Notes: a model not told the origin generated them from the letters alone. 64,000 bases of DNA from Callorhinchus milii (GCF_018977255.1 NW_024704742.1:35032001-35096000); one strand, 5' to 3'. Shown: positions 438-64,000, counted from the stretch's first letter. Translations and numbers: made by a program.

Positions 438-1725
438 GTAAGCCATGATATTAAATTGCCCTTAGTTTTGAGTTCGTATTTCAAATCTTCAGTATCCAAG
501 TGCAGGCAGGCTCTCACGGTGAATAAGGTGATGCTACCCTGCGTGAGGAGTGCTATATATAAAGGCCTCATCCTGGAAAGGCTAAATTGGTCAAAATCTT
601 CCCAGTGTTTCTGAGAGAAGAGATGAAAGCCACCTAGGCTCCTGCTCCCAGTTCGTCTAAAGAAAGCACTGTCTACTGTTTGTGCATGTGTGGCAGCCAG
701 GTGGGGAGAGGTCAGGCTCAGATCAACGTCCCCATACAATCAATTGGACTGCTGATTCTCACTGCGAAAGCTCACACATGAGCAATGACTTATTGAGTGG
801 GTATCAAAAGGAAACCAGCATGTGTGAAACTTGATCCTGCAAGAGGGGGGCCAGAGCAGGAGCAGAAAAGCGTATGGCAATGGGGAAAATTAGAAAAAAA
901 AACTGAACACATTAAATTAATTTGCTAAAAATAATAAAGAACATCCAACTCAAGCACCTATTCATAGGAAAATGTGCATTAATGTGCAATAGAATAGATA
1001 TTATAAAACACAAGATGGTATAGATTAGTGCAATCACCTCAATCCAAGAATTTTATATTGTTGTAGATACAATACAATTATACAGTACCCTTCATCTTGG
1101 GAGATATCTCAAAGTGCTTCACACTGCGGGCTGGCCACCTGAGCTGGGGGGGTGGGAGCCAAAGAGGGGAAAGATGGGGGGGAACGATGACAGAAAGCCC
1201 AGTCACAAAGAACAACATACATCGTCTGATATTCTTTATACTCTGTCCGTAAATGGAATTTAGAATGGAGGATTTATGTGGCACTATATTTTTCAGTGAT
1301 GTCTTTGTGGGTTGGTTTAACTGCACACGTATAAAGAAGGAAGTTCATTACAAAAAACACCCTCCATATACATGTATACATGCATATGCACATGGTTAAC
1401 TCTTCCCATGTTTTGAACATGGGTTGCTAACCCAACGCACAAATGAGACCCCAACAACTTGCATTTGTGTAGTGCTCTTTTGTTCGATAACGTGGGGCAG
1501 GTGGAGCAATTCACAAAGGTGAACGGGATGGGAGAGTTGAGGTGACCCCAATGAGTGTTGTTGATCAATTCATGTGATTTGAATTCCAGGAATAGTATTT
1601 ATTTCATTATATATTATGAATAAGATGACACTCATTTAAGCTGTGCAGAGTAAAATTCCTCACGTGCCTTCCTTGAATTAAATGCTGACATTATGTAAAG
1701 GAGCGTTGCTTTGTTTCTGTTCCAG

Positions 1726-1854
1726 GTTTGAGCCAGCTCGCAGTCAGTGATGTAGATACATACCCAGATGACCTTCTGTTTGAGCTGGTGGAGCCCCCTC
1801 AGTTTGGTGATCTGATGATAGCTGACTATGGACTCCAGAAAAAGATGAGGAAAG
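1726..1854 (+). CDS. FRAS1: FRAS1 window exon 2 (GLSQLAVSDVDTYPDDLLFELVEPPQFG...)
   Basis: TTCCAG| acceptor, G|GTGAGT donor, CSPG-repeat peptide. Not in the ORF track. Confidence 0.92.
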
Positions 1855-2140
1855 GTGAGTGCTTCCCACAAACAGTGGTGCATTAAAGTGACAAGCTTGA
1901 AACTTGGATCATGAGAAAGGCATGTAACTGAGAAGAACAAAAATGCCTGCTGAATCTTCTTAGTAATGTAGCCTTGTGAGCCCATCAGTCTTGCTGCATG
2001 TGATCCCTTTGAAGGCTTTGGTAATAGCAGCATTCCTCCATTCCTGGTTCTGTAGAGGATAGGACTGTATCTTTTGGCAAAACATTTATTTGAAAAATAG
2101 CGTACTGTTCCAATGTCGACATTACCCCTTTAGACACAGA

Positions 2141-2330
2141 TAATAATAATCCTTGCATTTGATATAGCGCTTTTCACGTCTTCTCGACATCTCAAAGCGC
2201 TTCACAGAATATGCTGTAAAGTGAATTGACTGTATATTTGTGGGCGAAACGCGTCAGCCAAGTGTCCCACAAACAGTCGTGGATTGAAAATGACCAATTT
2301 ATTATAGTTTTTTGTTTTGGAGGGATTATT
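2141..2330 (-). mobile_element. SINE 3' half (similar tails at 21221-21388, 23925-24030 and 59192-59305)
   Basis: ATAATAATAATCCTTGCATTTGATATAGCGCTTTTCACGTC... shared tail. Confidence 0.8.
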
Positions 2331-2739
2331 ATTATGCGACACACTAAGCTACAGAACAATGCCATGTTGCAGGTTTCCTTAAACCATTTGCTTCCAGCAG
2401 GCTTAAAAGCTTGTTCATTTAGATGGACAGTTTTTTTTTGTTAAACCGCCCTGCATGGTGAAAGGACGCACTGTATTATACTGGTGGGCAAATCTTAAGC
2501 TTTCCTTCCTGAAACGATCATGTTGCTGATATTATGAAGCGTTTGCATTCATGTAAACAAAGTACGTGCTGAGATTTGGAGATCATCCAAGTCAGAAGCT
2601 GGACTGGATTATTTGCATTGCCTACACAGTGAGGACTTGATGTTGTCTGTCCAGGCAGCAATACTTCAGCAATCAATTCATATCCTTGAGTGAATAGATT
2701 TGGCGATGGCTTTCATAATCTCTGCTTTCCTGTCAGGGC

Positions 2740-3107
2740 TTCTTCATTGCTGCCCTACCCCGCCTACCTCTACAACCTCCTCCAACCTCACAAACTCGGC
2801 CACTCCATTCGCTCAGTAGGCTTTGGCCTGCTTCAAGTACCCTGCCCCACCCGCCCACCCTACCAGCACTGATCAGGCTTTCAACATATCTGTCCCCACT
2901 GTTTGAAATGGCATCCCAGAGTCCCTTTGACTCGCCCCTTCCTTCGGCTACTTCAAGGTCTGCCTCAAGACTTTCCTCTTTGACCTCGCTTTCGGACATC
3001 TTTCCCCGCCCCACATGACTCAACTCCCCTGGCTCCCAGCCCCAGATCTGGTGCAAGAGCTGGACTGTTCAGCGCCTTGTGACTGATATAAAAGGCGCTA
3101 TATTAAT
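2740..3107 (+). mobile_element. L2 LINE 3' fragment
   Basis: Homologous to the 3' end of the 53825-56148 element; AAAGGCGCTATATT tail. Confidence 0.8.
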
Positions 3108-3128
3108 GGGCCTTCTCGCTTTCTGCAG

Positions 3129-3370
3129 GAGATGCCTTCACACAGGACAATGTGGAACGGAACACCCTTCAGTATCTTCATCATGGCAGTCAGACAACGG
3201 AAGACAGTATGAGAATCCTGGTCACTGATGGAGTTACATCAGTAACAGTGCTGCTGAAAGTGTGGGTGACAGTCAACGATGGACCACAGCTTGCACCTGG
3301 TTCCCTGCTGTCCATTTCAGTGCCAGAGAAGAACTCTGGGGCAGTAACAAGATCTCACCTGGCATACATT
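3129..3370 (+). CDS. FRAS1: FRAS1 window exon 3 (GDAFTQDNVERNTLQYLHHGS...TRSHLAYI)
   Basis: TGCAG| acceptor, |GTACGC donor, FRAS1-like peptide. Confidence 0.93.
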
Positions 3371-3530
3371 GTACGCACAGTATACTACCTGCAACTTGGG
3401 CATTCAGGCTTTTCTTTAATTTGGTGACTCCCACATTATTATTTCTTTTTTTCTAATATTCTCCCTGCTTATTTTATACTTATTTTCATTTCCATGATTC
3501 AGTGTTGTTCCTTCCTGTGTAAACCCACTA

Positions 3531-3680
3531 ATATCCCTCGCTCCCTGTTCTCCTACATATCCTCACAAAGATATCCCTTACTCCCCGCTCTAGTACATAC
3601 ACTTAGATATCCCTTGCTCCCTGCTATAGTTACAAACCCTCACAGATATCTCTGATCTCCTACATACCCTCACAAAATTC
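3531..3680 (+). repeat. Degenerate minisatellite, roughly 35-40 bp unit, about 4 copies
   Basis: Recurring ATATCCCTYRCTCCC...TACA..CCTCACA. Confidence 0.6.
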
Positions 3681-3781
3681 CCTCCTTTTCCGTGATTAAG
3701 TAAGTTGAGCAAAAATGTACATAAAGATGCTAAAAAGAACAAAAGGGATCTGTATTTAACCACTTGTCCTTTCTCCTCTAG

Positions 3782-3933
3782 GATAATAATTCTCCTGACG
3801 CTGCAATCCGAATTCAGCTAATATCTCCCCCCATGTACGGCATTCTCACCAGGACTAAATCTGGGAACAACCGCGAAGAACTCTCAGCACTGGCAACTTT
3901 TACAATGGAAGATATTAACAACCAGAAGATCAG
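3782..3933 (+). CDS. FRAS1: FRAS1 window exon 4 (DNNSPDAAIRIQL...FTMEDINNQKIR)
   Basis: CTAG| acceptor, AG|GTAAGG donor. Confidence 0.93.
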
Positions 3934-4559
3934 GTAAGGGTTAAAACTACTAATAATACTCCTTACATTTTGATAGGATCTTTTCACTTTCACAGCACCT
4001 GTGAAGAGTGTCTCTGGCCGATATCCAAGAGCAGTACCAAAATAAAGAGCAATTGATAAAGAAACGTTAAAGATTTTAATTGTGGACACAAAGAAAAACC
4101 TTCTATTTTTGAGCTTTGCGCAAAGGATTTTCCATCTGTTTTGACACATTTTGGTTCTTACATGGACTAATGACCACGTTACCATGTTAACCATTCTTCA
4201 CAAGTCCGTTAAGTGCTTCATGACGCCTTTTGCTGATTGTATAGTTGTACTGTTTGACCCTCAGGAATTATTGAGTCGCTCTGAGTAAAGTTAAAATTTA
4301 TTCCACATACTAATAATGCCAATTTTCTGCTCGAGCGCTTTCTAATGGCCATAAGGAGTGACAGGAGCAAAATTATTTTATTCCCTCAATGTTCTTAAAT
4401 AAATCCCATTATACTTAATTTTATGATAATGTAGACTGTCTATTAACATTTTGAATTCACAGAGGTCATTAAGTCAAGTCATCATCATGCTTAGACTTCA
4501 TATGGACAGAGTCGCAACATCACATCAATGAAATGCCTAGGAATATGTCCATCTGATAC

Positions 4560-5120
4560 AGCAACAAATAACAAATTGCATTTATATAGCGCCTTTCACA
4601 TCAAGAGGGCATCCCAAGGTGCTGGACAGTCGAGAGTTTGCACTCGAGCTGGAGATTGGATTCGGGAGGGGTGAGGGTCAAGGGGACTGGGGGTGAGAGG
4701 GGGGAAGATAACCGAAGGTGGTCAAAGAGTAAAGGCTTGAGACTGACCTTGAAAGCAAGAAGGGGCAAGGCAAAGAGTCTCCGGAATGAAGTTTCAGAGA
4801 TTAGGGACAGATAGGTTGAATGGTGGGGCAAGCAGGCCAGTGCCTGCTGAGCGGAGGGAGCGGGCAAGTTGGTAGGGTTTAAAAAGGTCACAAAAATAGG
4901 GTGGGACCAAACTGTAGATGTATTCAAAAGTGAGGATGAGGATGTTGAACTCAATCTTCTGGAGGATGGGGAGCCAGTGGAGCCAGTGAGAATGGGGTAA
5001 TAGGCTCACGGAGCCTAGTGCCGGAGAAGGCATGAGCTGCAGAATTCCTGATGGACTGCAGCTTGTGAAAGTAAAAGTTGGTAATCCGACAAGCAGACAT
5101 TTGGCATAGTCTTGCCTGTA
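4560..5120 (-). mobile_element. L2 LINE 3' fragment
   Basis: LHWLPILQKIEFNILIL on the minus strand; L2 tail. Confidence 0.87.
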
Positions 5121-5381
5121 ACAAAGTGCTTTGCCCTAAAATCCTGCACAAGACCTCAGTAAAAAGGCTATAAAGCTACCTCTTTGACTGTGCCTTTCCT
5201 CACCTCCCTATCCTCCAATGCTTAGCATCTGCCTCATGCTTATGAAACTCTGAGACTTTATCCGATTCGAAGAGCACTATATAAATGTGAGTTGTTATTA
5301 TTTGCAATAATTAAATGAAATGAATGAAGTAATGAAACATTGTCTACATTATGCAACTAATTTGCTCCGCTGCCTAAACAG

Positions 5382-5544
5382 ATATGTCACAGACTATGAC
5401 ACTGGCAATCAACCAGTCACGGATATTTTCTACTTTAATGTCTTCGATGCTGATAACAATCAACTCAATGACCAAATGTTTACCATCACCATCACTGCTG
5501 TTGAGAACCAGCCACCAATGGTTACCATCAGAGATGAAGTCACT
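5382..5544 (+). CDS. FRAS1: FRAS1 window exon 5 (YVTDYDTGNQPVTDIFYFNV...DEVT)
   Basis: ACAG| acceptor, |GTAAGT donor. Confidence 0.93.
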
Positions 5545-6428
5545 GTAAGTTTTGAAAAAGTTAGCCAGTGTTGTAAGGAGACCAGGGCAATAATTCAATG
5601 CAGGACATGAGTGCGTCATCTGTTAACTCTATGTAGGTTAATTTGTGATATTCGCAAACTAAATTCATTCAAATATACACAAACTGAAAGTCCCAATTAA
5701 TGCAACAAAGCTACTTTGCGAACAGCTGAAAAGTAGACCCTCACATAAATGTCATTGAATCTATCCCTGTTGTATTCCACTTCTGTTGAATTGTTGAGAA
5801 GATGTTCTTAAGAAATCAATTTGGCACAAGATACTCAGGCACACACAAGAGAAATCACATGTTAGTTTGTTAGTTTATGAATCAGTGTTTAAATCTGTAT
5901 ATATTTATTGTCATCTACATGTAACTATAGTAGGTACATCTTTTTCAAAACTGTTTAAAAAAAATCAAGAAGAGGCAAATATCTTGATGATGATTTCTTT
6001 CTATTTTGTTTTGGAATAAATACTTTTGAGGAGCGATTGAGGAGAAATTCCACCTGGGTCTAAATTTACTCTATTTATGTTGCATTTTGGAGCTTTTTGG
6101 TGTTTGGTGTTTTTCTTCCTTTTATTGGTACTTTGTCCATATGGCCTCATTTGTGAGTCTTAATAGTGAATCAACAGTTAAGGTATCACATGAGGGGTAC
6201 CACAGTTCAGCCTGATCCAACTCAACATCCACGCATGTGCACCTCTGTATCAGGAGCAGGTAGCTTACCTTGGAATCTGGGACCTTCCCAGTCCTTGTGG
6301 GTCAACTACTCACTGGTTAATTGTGCAGATATATTGGGGGTTAGGGGAGAAAGGAGCATATATATATATAGAGTATATATAATATATATACACACATAAC
6401 TATTGATATATATTTGTACTGGATGTAG

Positions 6429-6561
6429 GTGGAAGAGGGAGGCCGAGTCCTGTTGTCATCACACAGTATTCTAGCCACGGACTTTGACACCCCTCAGAGA
6501 GACCTGTTGGTGAGGATAACCACTGCACCGACCTTTGGCTACATTGAAAATCTCAATAGAG
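6429..6561 (+). CDS. FRAS1: FRAS1 window exon 6 (VEEGGRVLLSSHSILATD...)
   Basis: GTAG| acceptor, G|GTACAG donor. Confidence 0.92.
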
Positions 6562-6739
6562 GTACAGTATCTGCACTTCTAATATATTATGTGACACATT
6601 TCTCAACTTACTGCCAGATACACTTCCACTGTATTTTATTATTAATAATAATAATCCTTACATTTGAGGTATAAGGCATTATTGACTAAGTTATTCAAGT
6701 TATAATACATTTCACATTGGGAGGAAGTCCCAAAATGAT

Positions 6740-6975
6740 TCACAGAATACATTGGAATGAATGTGCACTTTCTATGCGAATACGGCAGCCAATTTGTTCA
6801 CAGCAATGTCCCATTATCATCCACGAAGTGAATGACTGATGTTTTATTTGTGGGATTGTTGCCAAGTTGCCCGGAGAAACTCCCTGCTCTTTTAGAGCAG
6901 TGCCATGGGATCTTTGACATCCATCCAAACATGCAGGCGGGACCTTGGGTTAAAGTCTCATCCGAAGGACGGCAA
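6740..6975 (-). mobile_element. Deu-like SINE fragment
   Basis: Reverse complement of the core in the 24282 copy. Confidence 0.7.
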
Positions 6976-7099
6976 TGAGTCACAAGCACTTAGACAGGCC
7001 CCATGTTGCCTTGTCTCTGGACACTGCCACATTGGCACCACTTTAGATGATGTTCATAATGCAGGATTTAAATTTTTTTGTTGTTGATTTTATTGACAG

Positions 7100-7290
7100 A
7101 AGGAAGAATTGACAGAGCAGTTATTATCAGCCCGGGCATTCCCTTCTCTATTCAGGACATTCTTGATAACAGTATTTACTATGTGCAAAGCGTCCATCGA
7201 AATATTGAGCCAATATCAGATGGCTTCGACTTCTATGTAACTGACAGCACAACTCGGTCTCCATCGTACCACTTCAACATCACTATTCTG
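7100..7290 (+). CDS. FRAS1: FRAS1 window exon 7 (PFSIQDILDNSIYYVQSVHRNIEP...NITIL)
   Basis: CAG|AAG tandem acceptor (start 7100 or 7103), |GTATGG donor. Confidence 0.92.
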
Positions 7291-7802
7291 GTATGGTCAG
7301 CTGTCACTTCACCTTTTACAATAATATATAATAATATAAATTATTCATGCATTTAATGAATGGTTACTGCACTGAAATGTTTCTGTCAGGTGTAAAGATA
7401 TACTTCCTGGTGTCTATTCTGCAATTGGCTTTCACCTGAACTTTTGCTTTTTGTTGTTGCATCAGTGCAAGCATTCTCTTGAGTTTACTTTTTCAATCCT
7501 ATTTGATATTGTCATATAGTCGATCCTTATTGTAACAGTGTTTTGGGATCCATAGAGTAGAATCTTGATAACCTGGAAGTCAGCAATTTGTGCATACACG
7601 GAGCACAGGAAGTTATATCGACAGCAATCTTGTGACCCAAATGCCAGCCATTTTGCCAGCGCAGGGACCGAGCCAGTCAGCTGGTGAAACCAGCAATCAC
7701 AGCCTTGTTATAAAATGGGTTGGGCTTTTATAGATTACAATGAGGCTGCAACTGTATTATGGAAAGGACAGCTTTGAACACAGCTTCCCTCTTTGTTTCC
7801 AG

Positions 7803-7956
7803 CGGAAGAACGATGAACCTCCCAGAATGACTGTCCAAACTGTCCATGTGAAGGAAGGAGCTGGCGTGGTGATCACAAACACCTCCCTGAGCCTGCAGGA
7901 CCTGGACACACCAGAGAATGAATTGGTTTTCAGAGTGACCAAGAAACCAAACCATG
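7803..7956 (+). CDS. FRAS1: FRAS1 window exon 8 (RKNDEPPRMT...SLQDLDTPENEL...KKPNH)
   Basis: TTCCAG| acceptor, G|GTATAA donor. Confidence 0.94.
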
Positions 7957-7958
7957 GT

Positions 7959-8260
7959 ATAATAATAATAATCTCTGCATTTAATATAGTGTATTATCAT
8001 GTCTTTGAGACGTCTCAAAGCACTTCACTATAAAATGAGTTGACTGTATATTTTGTGGGCAAATTGTCCCACAAACACTCTTGGATTGAGTGACCAAATT
8101 GTTATTTTTTGAGAGGGATTATTACCCCCGGAAAAGCCATCCACCAATCGACTAACAACTGGGTTCCTACTTACAAAGTAAACCTGCTAGGCGTGTGGAG
8201 TAAGATCAACAAAATTACATTTAAGGAAACTTGCCTAATGTTATCCCTACCGGGAACCTG
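7959..8260 (-). mobile_element. tRNA-SINE copy abutting the exon 8 donor
   Basis: Collinear with the 52049 and 56202 copies. Confidence 0.78.
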
Positions 8261-8886
8261 CAACACAAAAGAAATCAGTGATTTTGCTTTTTTAAATTAC
8301 AATAATTATAGAATTTTATTTAGAGATTGAAGGAGCCAGGATTCAGCGTACAAATTTGACATTCAATGTAGATTTTTATCCTAACTTGCACTGGATAGCA
8401 CTGTTTTTAAGTAGCATTATAAAGTATAAGGTAGAATGTGCTCTGATTTGTAGCATATTTTTAAGTCAGTTTCATTCAGTAAAACATTTTGGGATTACAT
8501 GGTAGGTAGCACACTGCATAGAAGAATTATGCCTGTTTTATGCATTTTCTCCAGCAGTAGAGTAAGTAATAACAATAATTCTCTTACGTTTGGTAAAGCC
8601 CCTTTCTCAGAGCACTTCACAGGATATGAAGATTCGCTAAACCCTCAATAGTCTTTTAATGTTATTTTGTTGAAAGATTCACTCATATAGCTGGTCTTAA
8701 GGTACAAGGTGACTGAACCACTGGGAAAGCTATCAGTCTTTTTGAAGGGAGGGGTTAGGTGGGGAGAGTGGATTGAATATTCCAACAACTCAAATATTTT
8801 ATAGTTGATTTTTTTTTCTAAAGATAAAGAGAACCCAGAACAGTTTCTCTGACAAATGATCCATTTCTTTTTTGTTTCAACTTAAG

Positions 8887-9150
8887 GCAAACTTCGGAGA
8901 AGGCAGTTTTATTCAGAGCCACTGGAAAATGGCCGTGTGCTGACTCAAGGCTCGTCCTTCACATACCAGGATGTGCTGGACGCTCTGATAGTTTACACCC
9001 ACGATGGGCCCATAATCCAGTCTGACGAATTTCGATTTGCCTTCACGGACGGGCTGTATACAGAGAATGGGAAAATGGAGTTTCAAGTGGAAAAGCAAAA
9101 GAATGAGGCGCCAAGATTAACTATTAACCGAGGTCTACAGTTCGCAGCAG
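8887..9150 (+). CDS. FRAS1: FRAS1 window exon 9 (SEPLENGRVLTQGSSFTYQD...INRGLQFAA)
   Basis: TAAG| acceptor, AG|GTAAGA donor. Confidence 0.94.
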
Positions 9151-9367
9151 GTAAGAGCAAGCGTTCAGACAGGATTGAAAACCTGGACAGAAAACAGTCA
9201 GTATGCAGGACACTTATTCGAAATATCTTTGTCAAAATTGTTTTGTCATTTTCCCCTAAGTGGTTCCAGGACTCTGAGATGCTTATCCTGTGTGAAGGAT
9301 GCTACATAAATACAAGTTGTTGTTAAGGTTTTGTGTGGTGGTTGTCATCCAGTAATGCCCCAAGCCT

Positions 9368-9601
9368 GAAATTCCATCTAGCCTTAGGCTATAAAATCAT
9401 TTTATGTCTTAAAATGAAAGACCCCCACAAGAATTGTGGAAAGTTCTTAAATTCAATTGTAACTCAAAAGCTGCTTTTCTACAGGTCTCAAAATGAATTG
9501 ATTTCCAAATCGGGACTGATTTTAAGAAGTTTCAACAATTCTGCACAAACTTAACTTTTCAGGAAAAACAAATCTTACAGGCTAAGACTAGGTGGAATTT
9601 C
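9368..9601. repeat. MITE-like element with about 30-bp terminal inverted repeats
   Basis: GAAATTCCATCTAGCCTTAGGCTATAAAAT versus the reverse complement GAAATTCCACCTAGTCTTAGCCTGTAAGAT; related sequence near 47860-48120. Confidence 0.6.
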
Positions 9602-10077
9602 TGGCCTCTAGAGTGTTCTGCAAGATAATACCAGGTTGAGAGACTGGGGTAACATAAATCAGGAGAGTGAAATCGAAACAGTTGATCAACATCATGTCAG
9701 GCTTGAGATACATTACTGCCTTCAACTCTAGAAGCTTATTCTCCATTTTCTATATTTACCAAACTCAACACAAGGGTCTCTTCATCACCATTTGTGAGTA
9801 AATGTACTGACAACTGAAGATTCCCCACCCCCATGTTAATTCTTAGTATTATATAGAAATGTTAGGGTTAGAATGAACCAGTTAGTCACTAACTGACCTG
9901 TTATTCATGTAATTAGGGGTGTGGGCATCAGGAGAGGGTCTAATTTAAATTGCACAAAAGAGATTATACTCGGTTAAATATCTGAACTCCTTTTTAGTTA
10001 CAAAGCGGAACCACAAAAAGTGGTTTGTCATTACACCAGTACATACTCATTCATTTTTTTCTTCTAATGGCATTTAG

Positions 10078-10266
10078 GCTCCGTATCAGTAATTACTGAG
10101 CAGCACCTAAAAGCTACAGATATCGATTCTGACAATGAGAAGCTCAAGTTTGTTATAACCAAAGACCCAACTGTGGGACGTCTGCAGATGTCCAAAAATG
10201 ACAATTTGGTTCAGATTTCCATCAGGGGACCTATTAAAAGCTTCACCCAAACGGACATCAAGAAAG
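10078..10266 (+). CDS. FRAS1: FRAS1 window exon 10 (SVSVITEQHLKATDIDSD...GPIKSFTQTDIKK)
   Basis: TTTAG| acceptor, G|GTGAAT donor. Confidence 0.94.
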
Positions 10267-10475
10267 GTGAATGAATCCTACCTACTTTATCTTCAGACCC
10301 TAAAAAAGACGTCTGCCAAAATATATTCAATCATTTGTTTAACTTTTGACTTTGAATTCTTAATAAACATAAGTTAGAACATTCGCAAAGTAAAAGAGCA
10401 ACCATAATGTTATGACACAACAATACTCAACAAGATTTTCTTTTAACCGCTCACCACTTTCTGCTGCGTTGCTAG

Positions 10476-53824: not shown

Positions 53825-56148
53825 TAACTGGGGATCCTACCTTCCCTCTCCTTCTGCTCTAAACGCCTCTAATCTTAGGTGACTTCAACATCCACTTCAT
53901 CCCCTCCTGCTCTACTCTGCTCTACCTCTGCCAACTTCTCCCTCCTCTCTTCCCTTAACCTCTCCCTCCTCATCCATTTCCCCACTCTTGACCATGGCCA
54001 CTCCCTTAACCTGGTGATCACCCGGGGCCTCACCGTCTCGGACATCATCATCATCGATAAAGCCATCTCAGATCACCACTTCATCTCCCTCAACACCTCC
54101 GTACCCCTTCCCATTTCTCAACCCTCCACGATCACTTACCGTCCATGGAAAAAAAATTCCTCCCCCTCCACTGCCCTGGAGTCATTTGAACTCCTACACC
54201 TCTGGCCCTCACTGACCGATCTCCCCTCCTCACTCTCTTTTCTCCACAACTCCTTCTCCTCCATTCTGGACTCCCTTGCCCCCCTCACCTCCCGAACTGC
54301 CTCATACTCCCATAAATCCCCCTAGTACACCAGCCATCTCCATTCCTTCAAGGCACAAGTGTGAGCTATCAAACTCACGTGGACCAAATCCAAACTAATG
54401 GTTCATCAGTAGATCTGGCTTCACCACACCAAGACCTACTGCTGCCCTCTTGCCTCCGCCAAATCCTCCTTCTACTCCAAGGTTATCTTGGAGGCAAAGG
54501 ACAACCCCAGGTTTCTCTTTTCCACCACAAACCGTTTCCTCCGTCCACCTTCCCATACCTTGCCCATCCTCTCCTCAATCGCCAACTGTGAGGAGATGCT
54601 GGACTTCCTCGAATCTAAAATCGAGGGGATACGTTCAGCCAACTCTGCCCTGTCCCCAGACACCCACGTCACCTCTCCCGCATGACCCACCCATCCTCCC
54701 CACACTCCTTCGACCCTATCTCTCCAAGGTCCTGGAACAAGTCATCATGTCCCAGCTCCACTCCTTTCTTTCTCGCCATTCCCTCTTTGAACCCCTCCAA
54801 TCCGACTTCCACGCTGCCCACAGCACGGAAACAGCCCTGGTCAAAGTCACTAATGACATTCTGAACATCTGTGATCAGGACTCCCTCTGCCTCCTTGTCC
54901 TTCTCGACCTCTCTGCCGCCTTCGACACTGTCGACCACGCCATCCTCATACACTACCTCTCCGCTTTACTAAATCTTCACAAACATGCCCTTGCCTGGTT
55001 CGATTACTATCCCTATCACCGTCTCCACTGTGTTGCCTCCAATGGTTTCTCCTCCAGCCCCCACACTGTCACATCTGGCGTCCCCCAGGGCTCTGTCCTT
55101 GGCCCTCTCCTCTTTAATATCTACATGCTCCCCCTTGGTGACATCATCCGCAGACATGGGGTCAACTTCCATATGTATGCGGATGACACCCAACTCTATC
55201 TTTCTGCTTCCACCGTCAACTCCAGGACCACTGCTGTCCTGACAGACTGTCTGTCGGACATCAAGACCTGGATGAGGGCAAGTTTCTTACAGTTGAATGT
55301 GAACAAGACTGAGGCCCTCCTGATTGGCTCGCGCCAGCGCCTCAGCACCTCAGGCTCTGGCAGCATCAACCTCCATGGTTGCACACTTCAACTCACCATA
55401 TGCAGTCAGGAACCTGGTGTCTTGTTCGACACTCAACTTTCTTTTCTTCCCCACATCCAAGCCTTGACCCACTCTGCCTTCCCTCACCTCCGTAACATTG
55501 CCCGATTCCGCCACTACCTCACCCCTCAGGCCCCTGAAACTCTTGTTTCGTCCTTCATCACCTCCAGACTCAACTATGCAAATGCTCTGCTTGTTGGCCT
55601 TCCCAACTCCTCCCTCCACAGGCTGCAGATAATCCAGAACTCTGGAGCCCGTGTCCTCTCCCGGACCAAACTCCGTGACCCCATCTCCCCCATTCTCGCC
55701 TGACTCCATTGGCTCCCTATCCTTCAGAGGATCCAGTTCAAGATCCTGGTCCTCACCTACAAAGCCCTCCATGGCCTCGCCCCGCCCTACCTCTGCGACC
55801 TCCTAACCCCCTACCAACCTGCCCGCTCCCTCCACTCAGCCGGCTCTGACCTGCTCAACATCCCCCGACCCACCCGCCCCACTATTGGCGGGAGAGCCTT
55901 CAGCCACTCTGCCCCCAACCTCTGGAATTCCATCCCCCAATCACTCCGTCTCGCCCCCTCTTTAGCCTCCTTCAAGTCTTGCCTCAAGACCCTCCTCTTC
56001 GACCATGCCATCGGCCACCCCCCTTCCCCTCCCCTCCCTTCTCCTCCCCTGACCCTAGCTCAGGTCTGAAATGCTGTACACTGTCCAGCGCTTTGGGACG
56101 TCCTCCCAACATGAAAGGTGCTATAGAAATGTAATTTTGTTACTGTTA
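53825..56148 (+). mobile_element. L2-clade LINE, 5'-truncated and deleted ORF2 (endonuclease C-end, RT with GVPQGSVLGP and YADD) plus 3' tail
   Basis: ORFs 53879-54325 and 54450-55703; L2-type HWLP...FKILVL; tail AGCGCTTTGGGACGTCC...AGGTGCTATAGAAATG. Confidence 0.93.
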
Positions 56149-61300: not shown

Positions 61301-61640
61301 ATCTCACATCTAACAATGTGACTGGGTGAAATTTTCCTGAGTTAAATTTCAAGTGATCTTCGGGTTGGGTTGTGGTTGATTATATTGTTTTATCTTTGTC
61401 TGCAATTTACTCCATCGTGTATACAAATTGCAGTGTAGAAAAGTGCCGGGTGCTCTAATGTTAAGCCTCTGAATAGTATTTTAGTCTAAATAAGAGTTTG
61501 ATCTTGGAATGCAAAATCTTAGTACAGTATGGGCTAAAACAGAGTCTCCCTGAGAATGAAGGGGTGGGGTGGGTGGGTGGATGAGGGGGATGATCACTTG
61601 CTGAAGCAATGGGTTTAAATCTCTTTATTCAAATTGGACA

Positions 61641-61831
61641 TGTTAGAAACATTTGCAACTATCTCCAACAACTTTGGAATGATCCGATTCCAGTATACCA
61701 ATTGGTTGAGTTAAGTCACTTTATTCAGGTCAAAACAGCAGTATTGGCCTGAATATGGGCCATCATGATCTTAAGCCAGTTCTCGGTTACCGTTCCCTGT
61801 AATTTAGCATTCCCTTCTCCACTTCCTAACA
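61641..61831 (-). repeat. 3' LTR (internally deleted) with termini TGTTAG...CTAACA
   Basis: Inverted termini TGTTAGAA (61641) and TTCCTAACA (ends 61831); minus-strand AATAAA; matches 63675-63771. Confidence 0.75.
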
Positions 61832-62168
61832 CTGGCTCCGGTCTGCTCCACGTCCCCCGCCCCAATCGTCCTACCATCGGTGGTCGGGCTTTCAGCCTCT
61901 CAGCCCCTAGGCTCTGGAACTCCATCCCCCAGTGCCTTCGCCGCCTCCTCCCTTTCCTCCTTCAAGGCCGGTCTCAAAACCTTTCTCTTTGACCGAGCCT
62001 TCAGCTCCCCTATCGACTCTCTTCCCCCTCCTCGCTCCCTCCCTTCCCTCCCCTCACCCTGACCATTTCCCCCCTGCTCGGGTCATGACCCAACTGTGCA
62101 GCACCTTGGGACGTCCTCCTGACGTGAAAGGCGCTTTATAAATGGAATCTTGTTGTTGTTGTTGTTGT
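61832..62168 (+). mobile_element. L2 LINE 3' fragment inside the LTR element
   Basis: IGGRAFSLSAPRLWNSIP; (TTG)n tail. Confidence 0.88.
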
Positions 62169-62169
62169 T

Positions 62170-62670
62170 CTTTAGTGGTTACCAGCATATGTCCAGGTAA
62201 CTTCATCAGCCTTCCTGCCATTGCCTAATAAGGTGTTATTCCTGCAGTAGAGTGAGGGGTAGGTCTAATAGCCATTAAGCACATGGGTGTAGCCACAGGC
62301 CAGTGTTTGGAGTGATCTGCACAAAATTTCTTTAACATCGTTTTGAGCGTTCAGTTCCCTCTTTCAACTATCCCAGATGACTGAGGGTGGAAATGAGATA
62401 TTCAATTTATGTTTTATTTCCATTAATTTCATTAAATCAGTAAAAACTTCCCCTGTGAAATGGGACCCCTGATCATTGTCCAAGGTTACAGGTATTCCCC
62501 ACCTGCAGATCACCTCACAAAACAAAATACGAGCCGCAGTTAAAGCTGAACAATTCTTAACCAGAAAGGCCTCCATCCACTTAGTAAATTTATCAATGAT
62601 GACTAACCCATACTTATATCCACCTTGAGCCGTGGTAAGTGGCTCAACAAAGTCAATCTGAATACTGGTT
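62170..62670 (-). pseudogene. pol: pol fragment: DDE integrase core
   Basis: IQIDFVEPL...GYKYGLVIIDKFTKWMEAF...RWGIPVTLDNDQGSHFTG, frameshift, then HPQSSGIVERGN*TLK...ITPY. Confidence 0.92.
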
Positions 62671-62718
62671 CACCATCACACAACAGCATCTGTGGAATCA
62701 AGGTGGTGAGTCCGGAGA

Positions 62719-62870
62719 TACAACAACAACAACAACTTGGATTTATTTAGCACCTTCCACACTGGACGGGGTCTCAGAGCGCTTCACAATAACGGATCCC
62801 GGGGCCAAGCCAGGGGGAGGGGGAGGAAGGTGACCAAAGGCGCGGTCGAAAAGAAAGGTCTTCAGCCAAG
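62719..62870 (-). mobile_element. L2 LINE 3' tail between the tether and integrase fragments
   Basis: Close to 13871-14015. Confidence 0.85.
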
Positions 62871-63650
62871 ATAATCTCAATGTCCCTCCCTGTCAAGCAC
62901 AGGATCCAATTGCTGAGTCTTTGAGATGACACCATTGTATCCCCTGGTTTCAGTAACAAATTTAAAGGTGTATGGGGCGAATGTAAGATGAGCTTCTGCA
63001 GTCCAGTGATGTAAGTGAAATGTTTTACAGCCCATAGGTGACCAACAAATGTCTCTCACATGGGTCGTATTGTTGTTCCACTCCCGTCAAAATGCGTGAA
63101 GCATAGGCAATGGAACAGTACCGACCTCCAACATGTTGGGTTAGCACAGCAGCAAGACTGTCATTTGTCCCAGCCACCTCCAGGTGGGAGGGTTACGATA
63201 GGGACGGTGCAACCAGTGTAGTAGCTTGCATCACTGCTTGTTTAAGAGAGGTGACTGCTTCACTATGTTTGACATTCCACCTGACACCAAAGGGTTGGTC
63301 ATCAGGTCCTTTTAGCAATTCATAAAGTGGTTTTCCATACTCCGAAAATTGGGGAAAGAAACTTCGCTGATACCCTACCAAACCCAAAAATGATCTTAAA
63401 GCAGTTTTGGTTCGGGATAATGGCAGTCGTTTAATTATTTCCACTTTGTGTTCATCTGGTTTCATGCCCGTGGGTGTCAACTGTAATCCCAAAAAGGTTA
63501 CCTGTTTCTGCATCAATTGGACCTTTAATCCTGCTACATGTAGTTTAGCCAATATTTGTTCCAGGAGGTGTTTATGTTGTTCTTCTGTAGTGGTGGCAAT
63601 CAAAATATCATCCACATATTGTAACACTGTCCCTGACTCATCCCGAGTGC
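62871..63650 (-). pseudogene. pol: pol fragment: RT C-half (LQYVDDILIA...FLGLVGY) plus degenerate RNase H/tether
   Basis: ORF 63193-63627. After a stop it continues as HLEVAGTNDSLAAVLTQ...IAYASRIL...CERHLL, then frameshifts to WAVKHFTYITG...SSQRLSNWIL. Confidence 0.9.
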
Positions 63651-63653
63651 ATC

Positions 63654-63665
63654 CCGACTACGCCA
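63654..63665 (-). promoter_or_regulatory. Primer-binding site complementary to the 3' end of tRNA-Ser
   Basis: Minus strand TGGCGTAGTCGG is the complement of CCGACTACGCCA, the recalled 3' end of vertebrate tRNA-Ser(AGA/TGA). Confidence 0.8.
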
Positions 63666-63669
63666 ATTT

Positions 63670-64000
63670 TTTTTGAAACATTTGCAACTATCTCCAACAA
63701 CTTTAAAATGATCTGATTCCAGTATACCAATTGGTTGTGTTAAGTCACTTTATTCAGGTCAAAACAGCAGGTAATACACAAATAAATGAAACAATAATAC
63801 ACAAGACACAAAACGGTACTACCGGATTTCTGTTACAGCACTGGTCGTCTCTCACACTGCTCCGATACAGTTCTGGAGATATATCTAACACACCTTTTTT
63901 AATGACAACTTAAATACTCCCAACAAAGCTGACTTATTAAGAAAAACAACTTCTTATATGATTATCTTCTACAAGCTTGCATAGCAACAGTCTCTACTTT
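63670..64000 (-). repeat. 5' LTR (truncated by the window edge)
   Basis: Near-identical to 61646-61741 and lies next to the PBS. Confidence 0.75.

Follow-up and report, generated by a model that had tools for sequence, protein, structure and literature searches.

Endogenous retroviruses (ERVs) related to the locus reported here have been found in a chimaera and in frogs. CmiERV_Scaffold 2 of the chimaera is listed, in a section of Han 2015 (PMC4422223), as a complete 9.6-kb provirus belonging to lineage I and clustering with snakehead retrovirus. A frog FLERV was placed among shark FLERVs, within which it was nested, and in both only pol was recognisable as foamy-like, with no such gag or env, according to a passage of Aiewsakun & Katzourakis 2017 (PMC5512871). 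Lokiretroviruses, the proposed sister lineage of all sampled retroviruses, are pictured in part of Wang & Han 2020 (PMC7947760) with an LTR-PBS-gag-pol-env layout in which a tether and then a second RNase H come after reverse transcriptase (RT). This layout also applies to the relatives of the element considered below.

The window analysed here is a 64,000-nt stretch of Callorhinchus milii DNA (GCF_018977255.1 NW_024704742.1:35032001-35096000), and the element lies at its far end. It is very probably a dead and heavily deleted ERV remnant of a kind already known from the chimaera and frog genomes. Its parts, in window coordinates, are as follows.

61637..61640, minus strand: target-site duplication on the 3' side, TGTC in the sense orientation, with its twin outside the window at about 64134-64137
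61641..61741, minus strand: 3' LTR remnant, the last ~100 nt only, with AATAAA and the AACA terminus
61742..62170, plus strand: 5'-truncated LINE tail ending in (GTT)n, in place of the integrase end, any env and polypurine tract (PPT), and the U3 of the 3' LTR
62168..62666, minus strand: integrase catalytic core and following stretch (rve, E=2e-11), ending about 120 aa short of relatives
62667..62721, minus strand: tether end GLTTLIPQMLLCDGEP fused to the integrase core, with the deletion junction at about 62667-62672
62722..62872, minus strand: LINE-tail insertion inside the tether, forming inverted repeat I1 with the tail at 61742..62170
62873..63192, minus strand: tether, an RNase H-fold domain without catalytic Asp, with one stop and one frameshift
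63193..63639, minus strand: RT, C-terminal half, from shortly upstream of LQYVDD to the thumb FLGLVGYQR (RVT_1, E=8.9e-8)
63640..63653, minus strand: deletion junction between primer site and mid-RT, with leader, gag, protease and the N-terminal half of RT missing
63654..63665, minus strand: tRNA-Ser primer-binding site (PBS), first 12 of 18 nt retained, a few bases after the 5' LTR
63667..64000, minus strand: 5' LTR, ~462 bp in all, extending beyond the window to about 64133

All of these features form one unit on the minus strand, running from 61641 to about 64133. The provirus measures ~2.5 kb, compared with at least 8.4 kb between the LTR ends of relatives. What survives is the full 5' LTR, the primer site for tRNA-Ser, RT in its C-terminal half, the tether and the integrase core. 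The rest of RT is missing, together with gag, protease, env, the second RNase H, the N-terminus of integrase and the greater part of the 3' LTR. The absence of gag, env and a second RNase H from this copy had been noted in an earlier reading made from the sequence alone and was confirmed.

The two LTR copies reported in that sequence-only reading are direct repeats (61643-61741 and 63672-63770) identical at 94 of 99 positions; set beside further genomic copies, the one on the RT side proved to be whole (~462 bp), and the other retains its last ~100 nt. The five differences in the 99 shared bases (three transitions and two transversions) correspond to a K2P distance of ~0.052 by our own arithmetic, which translates into an age of roughly 120 My if the slow rate of Han 2015 is applied and of about 12 My with a mammalian one. 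The LTR termini read TGTT...AACA, and the 4-bp TGTC (sense) is present outside both ends and therefore indicates a single integration event. The LTR family is abundant, with 157 candidates at first look; all 40 of the candidates that were scored matched and, the window copy itself aside, were 83-91% identical. Contig C30 carries a solo LTR of this family that is flanked by a 4-bp duplication of its own (CTCT).

A different reading of the 460-bp repeat is that it is part of a tandem repeat family lying beside a chance ERV fragment and not the LTR of the element. Most of the scored copies do sit in tandem arrays of 3.5-3.65 kb on small contigs, where no primer site follows the repeat and no ERV coding similarity was detected, and an exact-pattern search recovered no second copy in which the window LTR end is joined to the PBS. 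Against this, in the window there is a copy of the repeat on either side of the internal region, both in one orientation with TGTT...AACA termini, the PBS is only a few bases away from the 5' copy, and beyond both copies lies a matching 4-bp duplication. The solo copy on C30 has a separate 4-bp duplication. The terminal bases of the repeat also resemble those of the relatives' LTRs, and the array copies end about 10 nt before the LTR end, as would be expected of an LTR caught in a duplicated block. The tandem-repeat reading was rejected as very unlikely on the flanking orientation, termini, primer site and 4-bp duplications, and the repeat is treated as the LTR of the element.

The sequence TGGCGTAGTCGG at 63665->63654 is the reverse complement of the 3' end of tRNA-Ser(AGA) plus CCA, based on a tRNA gene from the same genome. 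The match covers 12 of 18 nt in the window provirus and 18 of 18 in three relatives, whose LTRs are followed by the full 18-mer TGGCGTAGTCGGCAGGAT. The reverse complement of the last 15 nt of TGGCGTAGTCGGCAGGAT occurs 77 times in the genome, versus a single occurrence of a control pattern. At the first six of these tRNA-end pattern places that were checked a tRNA gene was absent, and these are probably ERV primer sites; the seventh, on contig C1552, is a tRNA-Ser(AGA) gene ending in exactly the sequence complementary to the PBS, which shows that the serine primer proposed from the sequence alone was the right call.

Pfam was run on five frame pieces of the internal region, of which four matched and the fifth had no match. 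The RT piece, with the LQYVDD and FLGLVGY motifs pointed out earlier, is present as described (RVT_1, E=8.9e-8). The tether gave RT_RNaseH (E=2.2e-7) and RT_RNaseH_2 (E=4.5e-7) matches along with a second RT_RNaseH piece (0.0016), and its reported motifs HLEVAGT (without DAS), IAYASR, CERHLL and WAVKHF were all found, with the E of CERH kept. The end of the tether, GLTTLIPQMLLCDGEP, directly adjoins IQIDF of the integrase core, and the second RNase H and the N-terminal zinc domain of integrase are gone from between them; relatives have about 450-465 aa from the RT thumb to the integrase core. The integrase had been read as a full DDE core. The D, D and E are indeed all encoded, but a frameshift separates the second D from the E and two stops follow, so that the description is correct in part. 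By tblastn this region is 72% and 60% identical in two frames to the integrase of C33, a relative in the same genome. Translation of the LINE tail at 61742..62170 matches the C-terminus and tail of a LINE located at window positions 54399-56139. At the other end of the internal region, relatives run on from the PBS into leader and gag.

In the history that these remains suggest, a tRNA-Ser-primed retrovirus integrated, leaving the 4-bp target duplication, and about three quarters of the provirus later disappeared. The primer site is fused to mid-RT by one deletion, and the tether end to the integrase core by another. In place of everything between mid-integrase and the final 100 nt of the 3' LTR there is a LINE tail, and a further LINE tail lies within the tether; the order of the deletions is one that we infer. 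It is plausible that the RNase H and env lost from this copy resembled those of its relatives.

Fuller copies of the element itself were sought in the genome. The coding part proved nearly unique. For the RT/tether DNA no further close copy was recovered, the next best of 13 matches being 78% identical over 97 nt, and the integrase DNA has one copy at 89%, on C6, which is itself a rearranged fragment. The exact pattern of window LTR end plus PBS had no second site in the genome. Compared as proteins, the nearest relatives are 58% identical in RT and 72-73% in integrase. C13 has an 801-aa ORF with RVT_1, RT_RNaseH_2, RNase_H (PF00075, E=1e-15), Integrase_H2C2 and rve. The canonical second RNase H that follows the tether in relatives (PF00075, E=1e-15 and 1.9e-14) is the one deleted in the window copy. 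The C33 provirus has paired LTRs 96% alike, the serine PBS, a gag with one CCHC knuckle, pol and env, and the transmembrane (TM) half of its env matches TLV_coat (E=5.4e-11) and contains LQNRMALDFL...CX6CC. Both parts that the sequence-only reading had wanted looked for in fuller copies, a second RNase H and an env, are present in the relatives, as PF00075 and a TLV_coat env.

In PDB, the RT-tether-RNase H region of the relatives matched XMRV/MLV RT best (2e-50), then PFV (5e-37) and Ty3 (4e-36), and RT-RNase H scored 175 bits with MLV versus 131 bits with PFV. RNase H alone was also nearer MLV/XMRV (9e-9) than PFV (5e-5), by score and not by tree. The nearest PDB entry to integrase was the PFV integrase (3.6e-26). 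The TM part of the C33 env matched filovirus GP2 and syncytins. There was no Gag_p30 match among the relatives and the MLVIN_C match was weak, below cut-off. Outside the chimaera, the nearest protein was P0001 of Xenopus tropicalis (50-52%), and the nearest outside proteins as a group came from Xenopus, Rana/Aquarana and Latimeria and are automatically named 'NYNRIN-like'.

Phylogenies were constructed for the two regions that the window copy retains. The RT plus tether tree (IQ-TREE, 49 rows, 301 columns) used 11 Gypsy rows as the outgroup. Gypsy (100/99) and the three Loki rows (100/99) each formed a clade, and the remaining 35 retroviral rows, including the window, grouped together (99/97). 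Within these, the window joined C33 and C4 (99/90), then C13 (100/98) and then Xenopus P0001 (100/99). The branches of the window group form an open grade at the base of the non-Loki side, outside the clade of gamma/epsilon-like elements (98/97). The integrase tree (42 rows, 166 columns) was built after P0118 was dropped as a poor match and had no true NYNRIN among its rows; it united the window with C33, C15 and C5 (100/97) and then with P0001 (99/96), set it apart from two Loki integrases, and left the deep nodes without resolution. Named exogenous retroviruses (MLV, WDSV, SnRV, foamy virus, lentivirus) and class II/III references were not among the rows of either tree, and for want of the former the window clade is not placed among classes I to III.

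C15 is letter-identical to CmiERV_Scaffold 2 in LTR end, PBS and leader over the passage of Han 2015 Additional file 1 (PMC4422223) that was inspected. Lineage I is accordingly represented by this published locus in the integrase tree and by its close kin C33 and C4 in the RT tree. The window element shares with CmiERV lineage I a clade in both trees, the tRNA-Ser PBS, the tether substitutions and similar LTR terminal bases. It differs in belonging to another LTR family, in being 59% (RT plus tether) and 69% (integrase) identical, and in having no gag, protease, RNase H or env in the window copy. Judged from these sequences, the element forms a separate and divergent branch within the ERV group to which CmiERV_Scaffold 2 and the Xenopus tropicalis relative belong.

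This ERV group appears to correspond to the published 'CmiFLERV/XtrFLERV' clade. Xenopus P0001 is sister to the in-genome clade (100/99), the gag and env of the relatives are not foamy-like and their integrase is nearest to the PFV integrase in PDB, all of which agree with that clade as portrayed in the part of Aiewsakun & Katzourakis 2017 (PMC5512871) drawn on here; their RT-RNase H, however, is nearer to MLV than to PFV, and the likeness as a whole is to the paper's description and not to its sequences. Likenesses to gammaretrovirus-type ERVs include XMRV/MLV RT as the best PDB match of the relatives, the TLV_coat/CX6CC env, the single CCHC and the 4-bp target duplication of the window provirus, which is the length duplicated by MLV. 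They differ in that the window falls outside the gamma/epsilon-like clade (98/97) and that the relatives have no Gag_p30 and only a weak MLVIN_C match.

It is conceivable, but doubtful, that the frog-chimaera-coelacanth group represents a deep retroviral lineage of its own that is neither class I nor foamy-like class III. If so, it would combine a mosaic pol, in which RT and RNase H are MLV-like and integrase is PFV-like, with a gamma-type env. As a member of the described chimaera/Xenopus ERV group, the window element is one more degraded and divergent sublineage and matters little in itself.

The sequence-only reading had put the element tentatively in a basal, lokiretrovirus-like lineage, and membership in the lokiretroviruses, or a branch beside them, was considered. 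The tether is present as it is in lokiretroviruses, and Xenopus, Rana/Aquarana and Latimeria, the hosts of the nearest outside proteins, are marked Loki-positive in the portion of Wang & Han 2020 (PMC7947760) consulted, where the Loki integrase is also said to be nearest to CGIN1, the nearest outside proteins here having the automatic name 'NYNRIN-like'. Identity to the C33 pol is 35% for the lamprey Loki protein and about the same (30-34%) for gamma-like ERVs. The three Loki references were P0125 (lamprey), P0012 (Silurus) and P0130. P0125 carries YLETAYSD, which is found in the published Loki-Pma Gag-Pol consensus, with the surrounding stretch agreeing by eye, and P0012 shares FLGICNYSRQF with another Loki consensus. 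The standing of P0130 as Loki rests on its clustering in the tree and likeness by eye, and its own motif had 0 matches in the Loki supplement.

The trees do not bear this placement out. In the RT plus tether tree the Loki rows (100/99) and the window are on opposite sides, the latter at 99/97, and the AU test rejected a union of the five-row window clade with the three Loki rows (p=0.005, at a cost of 37 log-likelihood units), the tested group having been named after the tree was seen. In the integrase tree, with its open deep nodes, the window was not joined to Loki integrase. The env of the relatives is of the gamma type (TLV_coat/CX6CC), with no PF00523 match in their env ORFs at E<=1, whereas that of Loki is paramyxovirus F-like. 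Genome-wide searches for PF00523 (F-like env) and PF03408 (foamy env) were likewise empty, but the controls were silent in every genome and neither empty search therefore shows absence. The RNase H of the relatives is nearest to MLV/XMRV, while the Loki RNase H groups with foamy viruses according to a passage of Wang & Han 2020 (PMC7947760). Where lokiretroviruses have the hallmark FLGICNY, the window provirus has FLGLVGY. The window-lineage motifs HSPHTPL, FHLEVA, HFTYITG, FHLEIMAT, HFTYIAG and FCLEIAFSE had 0 matches in the portion of the line-wrapped Loki supplement searched, in which two Loki-type motifs were found. In the species table of the same paper (PMC7947760), the chimaera genome has no Loki-positive mark in the part covered, and the Chondrichthyes row shown there (Orectolobiformes) has 0 of 3 positive. 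Taken with the published CmiERV kin, these differences make a lokiretroviral affiliation extremely unlikely, and as a useful negative the window element gives no evidence for lokiretroviruses in cartilaginous fishes.

In the tether alignment the Gypsy rows read TDAS at the position of the first catalytic Asp and TDH at that of the last, and both Asp positions were replaced in all seven window-lineage rows shown. These are, with the first and last positions in turn, as follows.

Window: VAGT, SPH
C13: VAST, TPH
C33: VAGD, SPH
C4: VAGG, SPH
Xenopus P0001: VAAT, SPH
Latimeria P0117: IMAT, ASH
P0121: LDST, TSH

Because it is common to every relative, the loss of the Asp residues is a lineage trait and not decay, and the earlier suggestion that decay alone might have erased DAS was not upheld. 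The gamma-like and Loki rows of the alignment are likewise without the tether Asp residues, so that the missing DAS cannot separate Loki from other retroviruses. The RNase H-fold domain that follows RT is a true retroviral tether, once a Gypsy-type RNase H and now lacking the catalytic aspartates.

An alternative is an ordinary Ty3/Gypsy LTR retrotransposon in which decay of the window copy removed the catalytic residues of its only RNase H. This would be in keeping with the Pfam assignment of the domain to RT_RNaseH/RT_RNaseH_2, the Gypsy-type fold, and with the many stops and frameshifts of this copy, but its chances are practically nil. It is refuted by the same Asp-position losses in relatives whose frames are open over long stretches and in proteins from other species, by PF00075 after the tether together with env in relatives, and by the RT plus tether and integrase trees, in which the Gypsy rows are a clade of their own (100/99). 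The reading of the element as retrovirus-type and not ordinary Gypsy is thus supported by the tether substitutions that it has in common with its relatives; its RT and integrase did not fall inside Gypsy, and the relatives have a second RNase H where a Gypsy element would have a single catalytic one. The replacement of the last catalytic Asp, with SPH in the window where Gypsy has TDH, had been overlooked when the missing DAS was first pointed out.

Three fuller proviruses of a family related to the endogenous retrovirus (ERV) in the window were located elsewhere in the C. milii genome (G000):

Contig C33 (L036): fuller provirus of the related family
Contig C15 (L037): fuller provirus of the related family
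Contig C5 (L038): fuller provirus of the related family

The LTR pairs of these proviruses were 96.1-96.8% identical, and each provirus carried an 18-nt tRNA-Ser primer binding site (PBS) and a gamma-type env, with frame breaks in all three. The C15 provirus matched the published element CmiERV_Scaffold 2 (Han 2015, PMC4422223) over the stretch compared. In the RT and tether tree, the sister of the clade of chimaera in-genome elements was the Xenopus tropicalis protein P0001 (support 100/99), which was nearer to the chimaera elements than were the coelacanth, other frog and bird proteins. A pattern of frog ERVs grouping with those of chimaera or shark is discussed as possible cross-class transmission in an earlier study (Aiewsakun & Katzourakis 2017, PMC5512871).

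A LINE within the window has a C-terminal coding tail and 3' end of the sequence type seen in both insertions of the window provirus, and copies of this LINE likewise interrupted the relative on contig C13. A second rearranged fragment of the window-copy sublineage was found on contig C6:

Window 54399-56139, + strand: LINE carrying a long RT reading frame of 434 aa
G000:C6:1648000-1657999, about 6912-8082 (L056): second rearranged fragment, integrase (IN) part 89% identical

The C6 fragment retained a piece of the U3 end of the LTR, with both RT and tether missing, and its junction between LINE tail and IN was apparently common to the window copy. A junction common to both loci suggests that the LINE inserted first and that copying of the rearranged form, or duplication of the locus, followed.

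The LTR of the window ERV family was also one component of tandem arrays with units of 3.45-3.65 kb:

G000:C272:74000-83999 (L041): LTR-bearing array, units approximately 88% alike
G000:C110:35000-44999 (L042): LTR-bearing array, units approximately 76% alike

A genome search with the LTR placed further such arrays on contigs C353, C504, C61, C116 and C78. The array units were built from the LTR, the tail of a LINE and long stretches of low-complexity DNA rich in AC. Within the units the LTR stopped approximately 10 nt before its terminus, was followed by no PBS and was accompanied by no ERV protein similarity. The arrays look like a macrosatellite that took in an LTR.

Inside 10 kb of contig C1552 (about 461-10382), sequence matching the 3' end of tRNA-Ser occurred eight times, on alternating strands. 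One of these sites was checked and was tRNA-Ser(AGA), and the stretch is probably a tRNA gene cluster.
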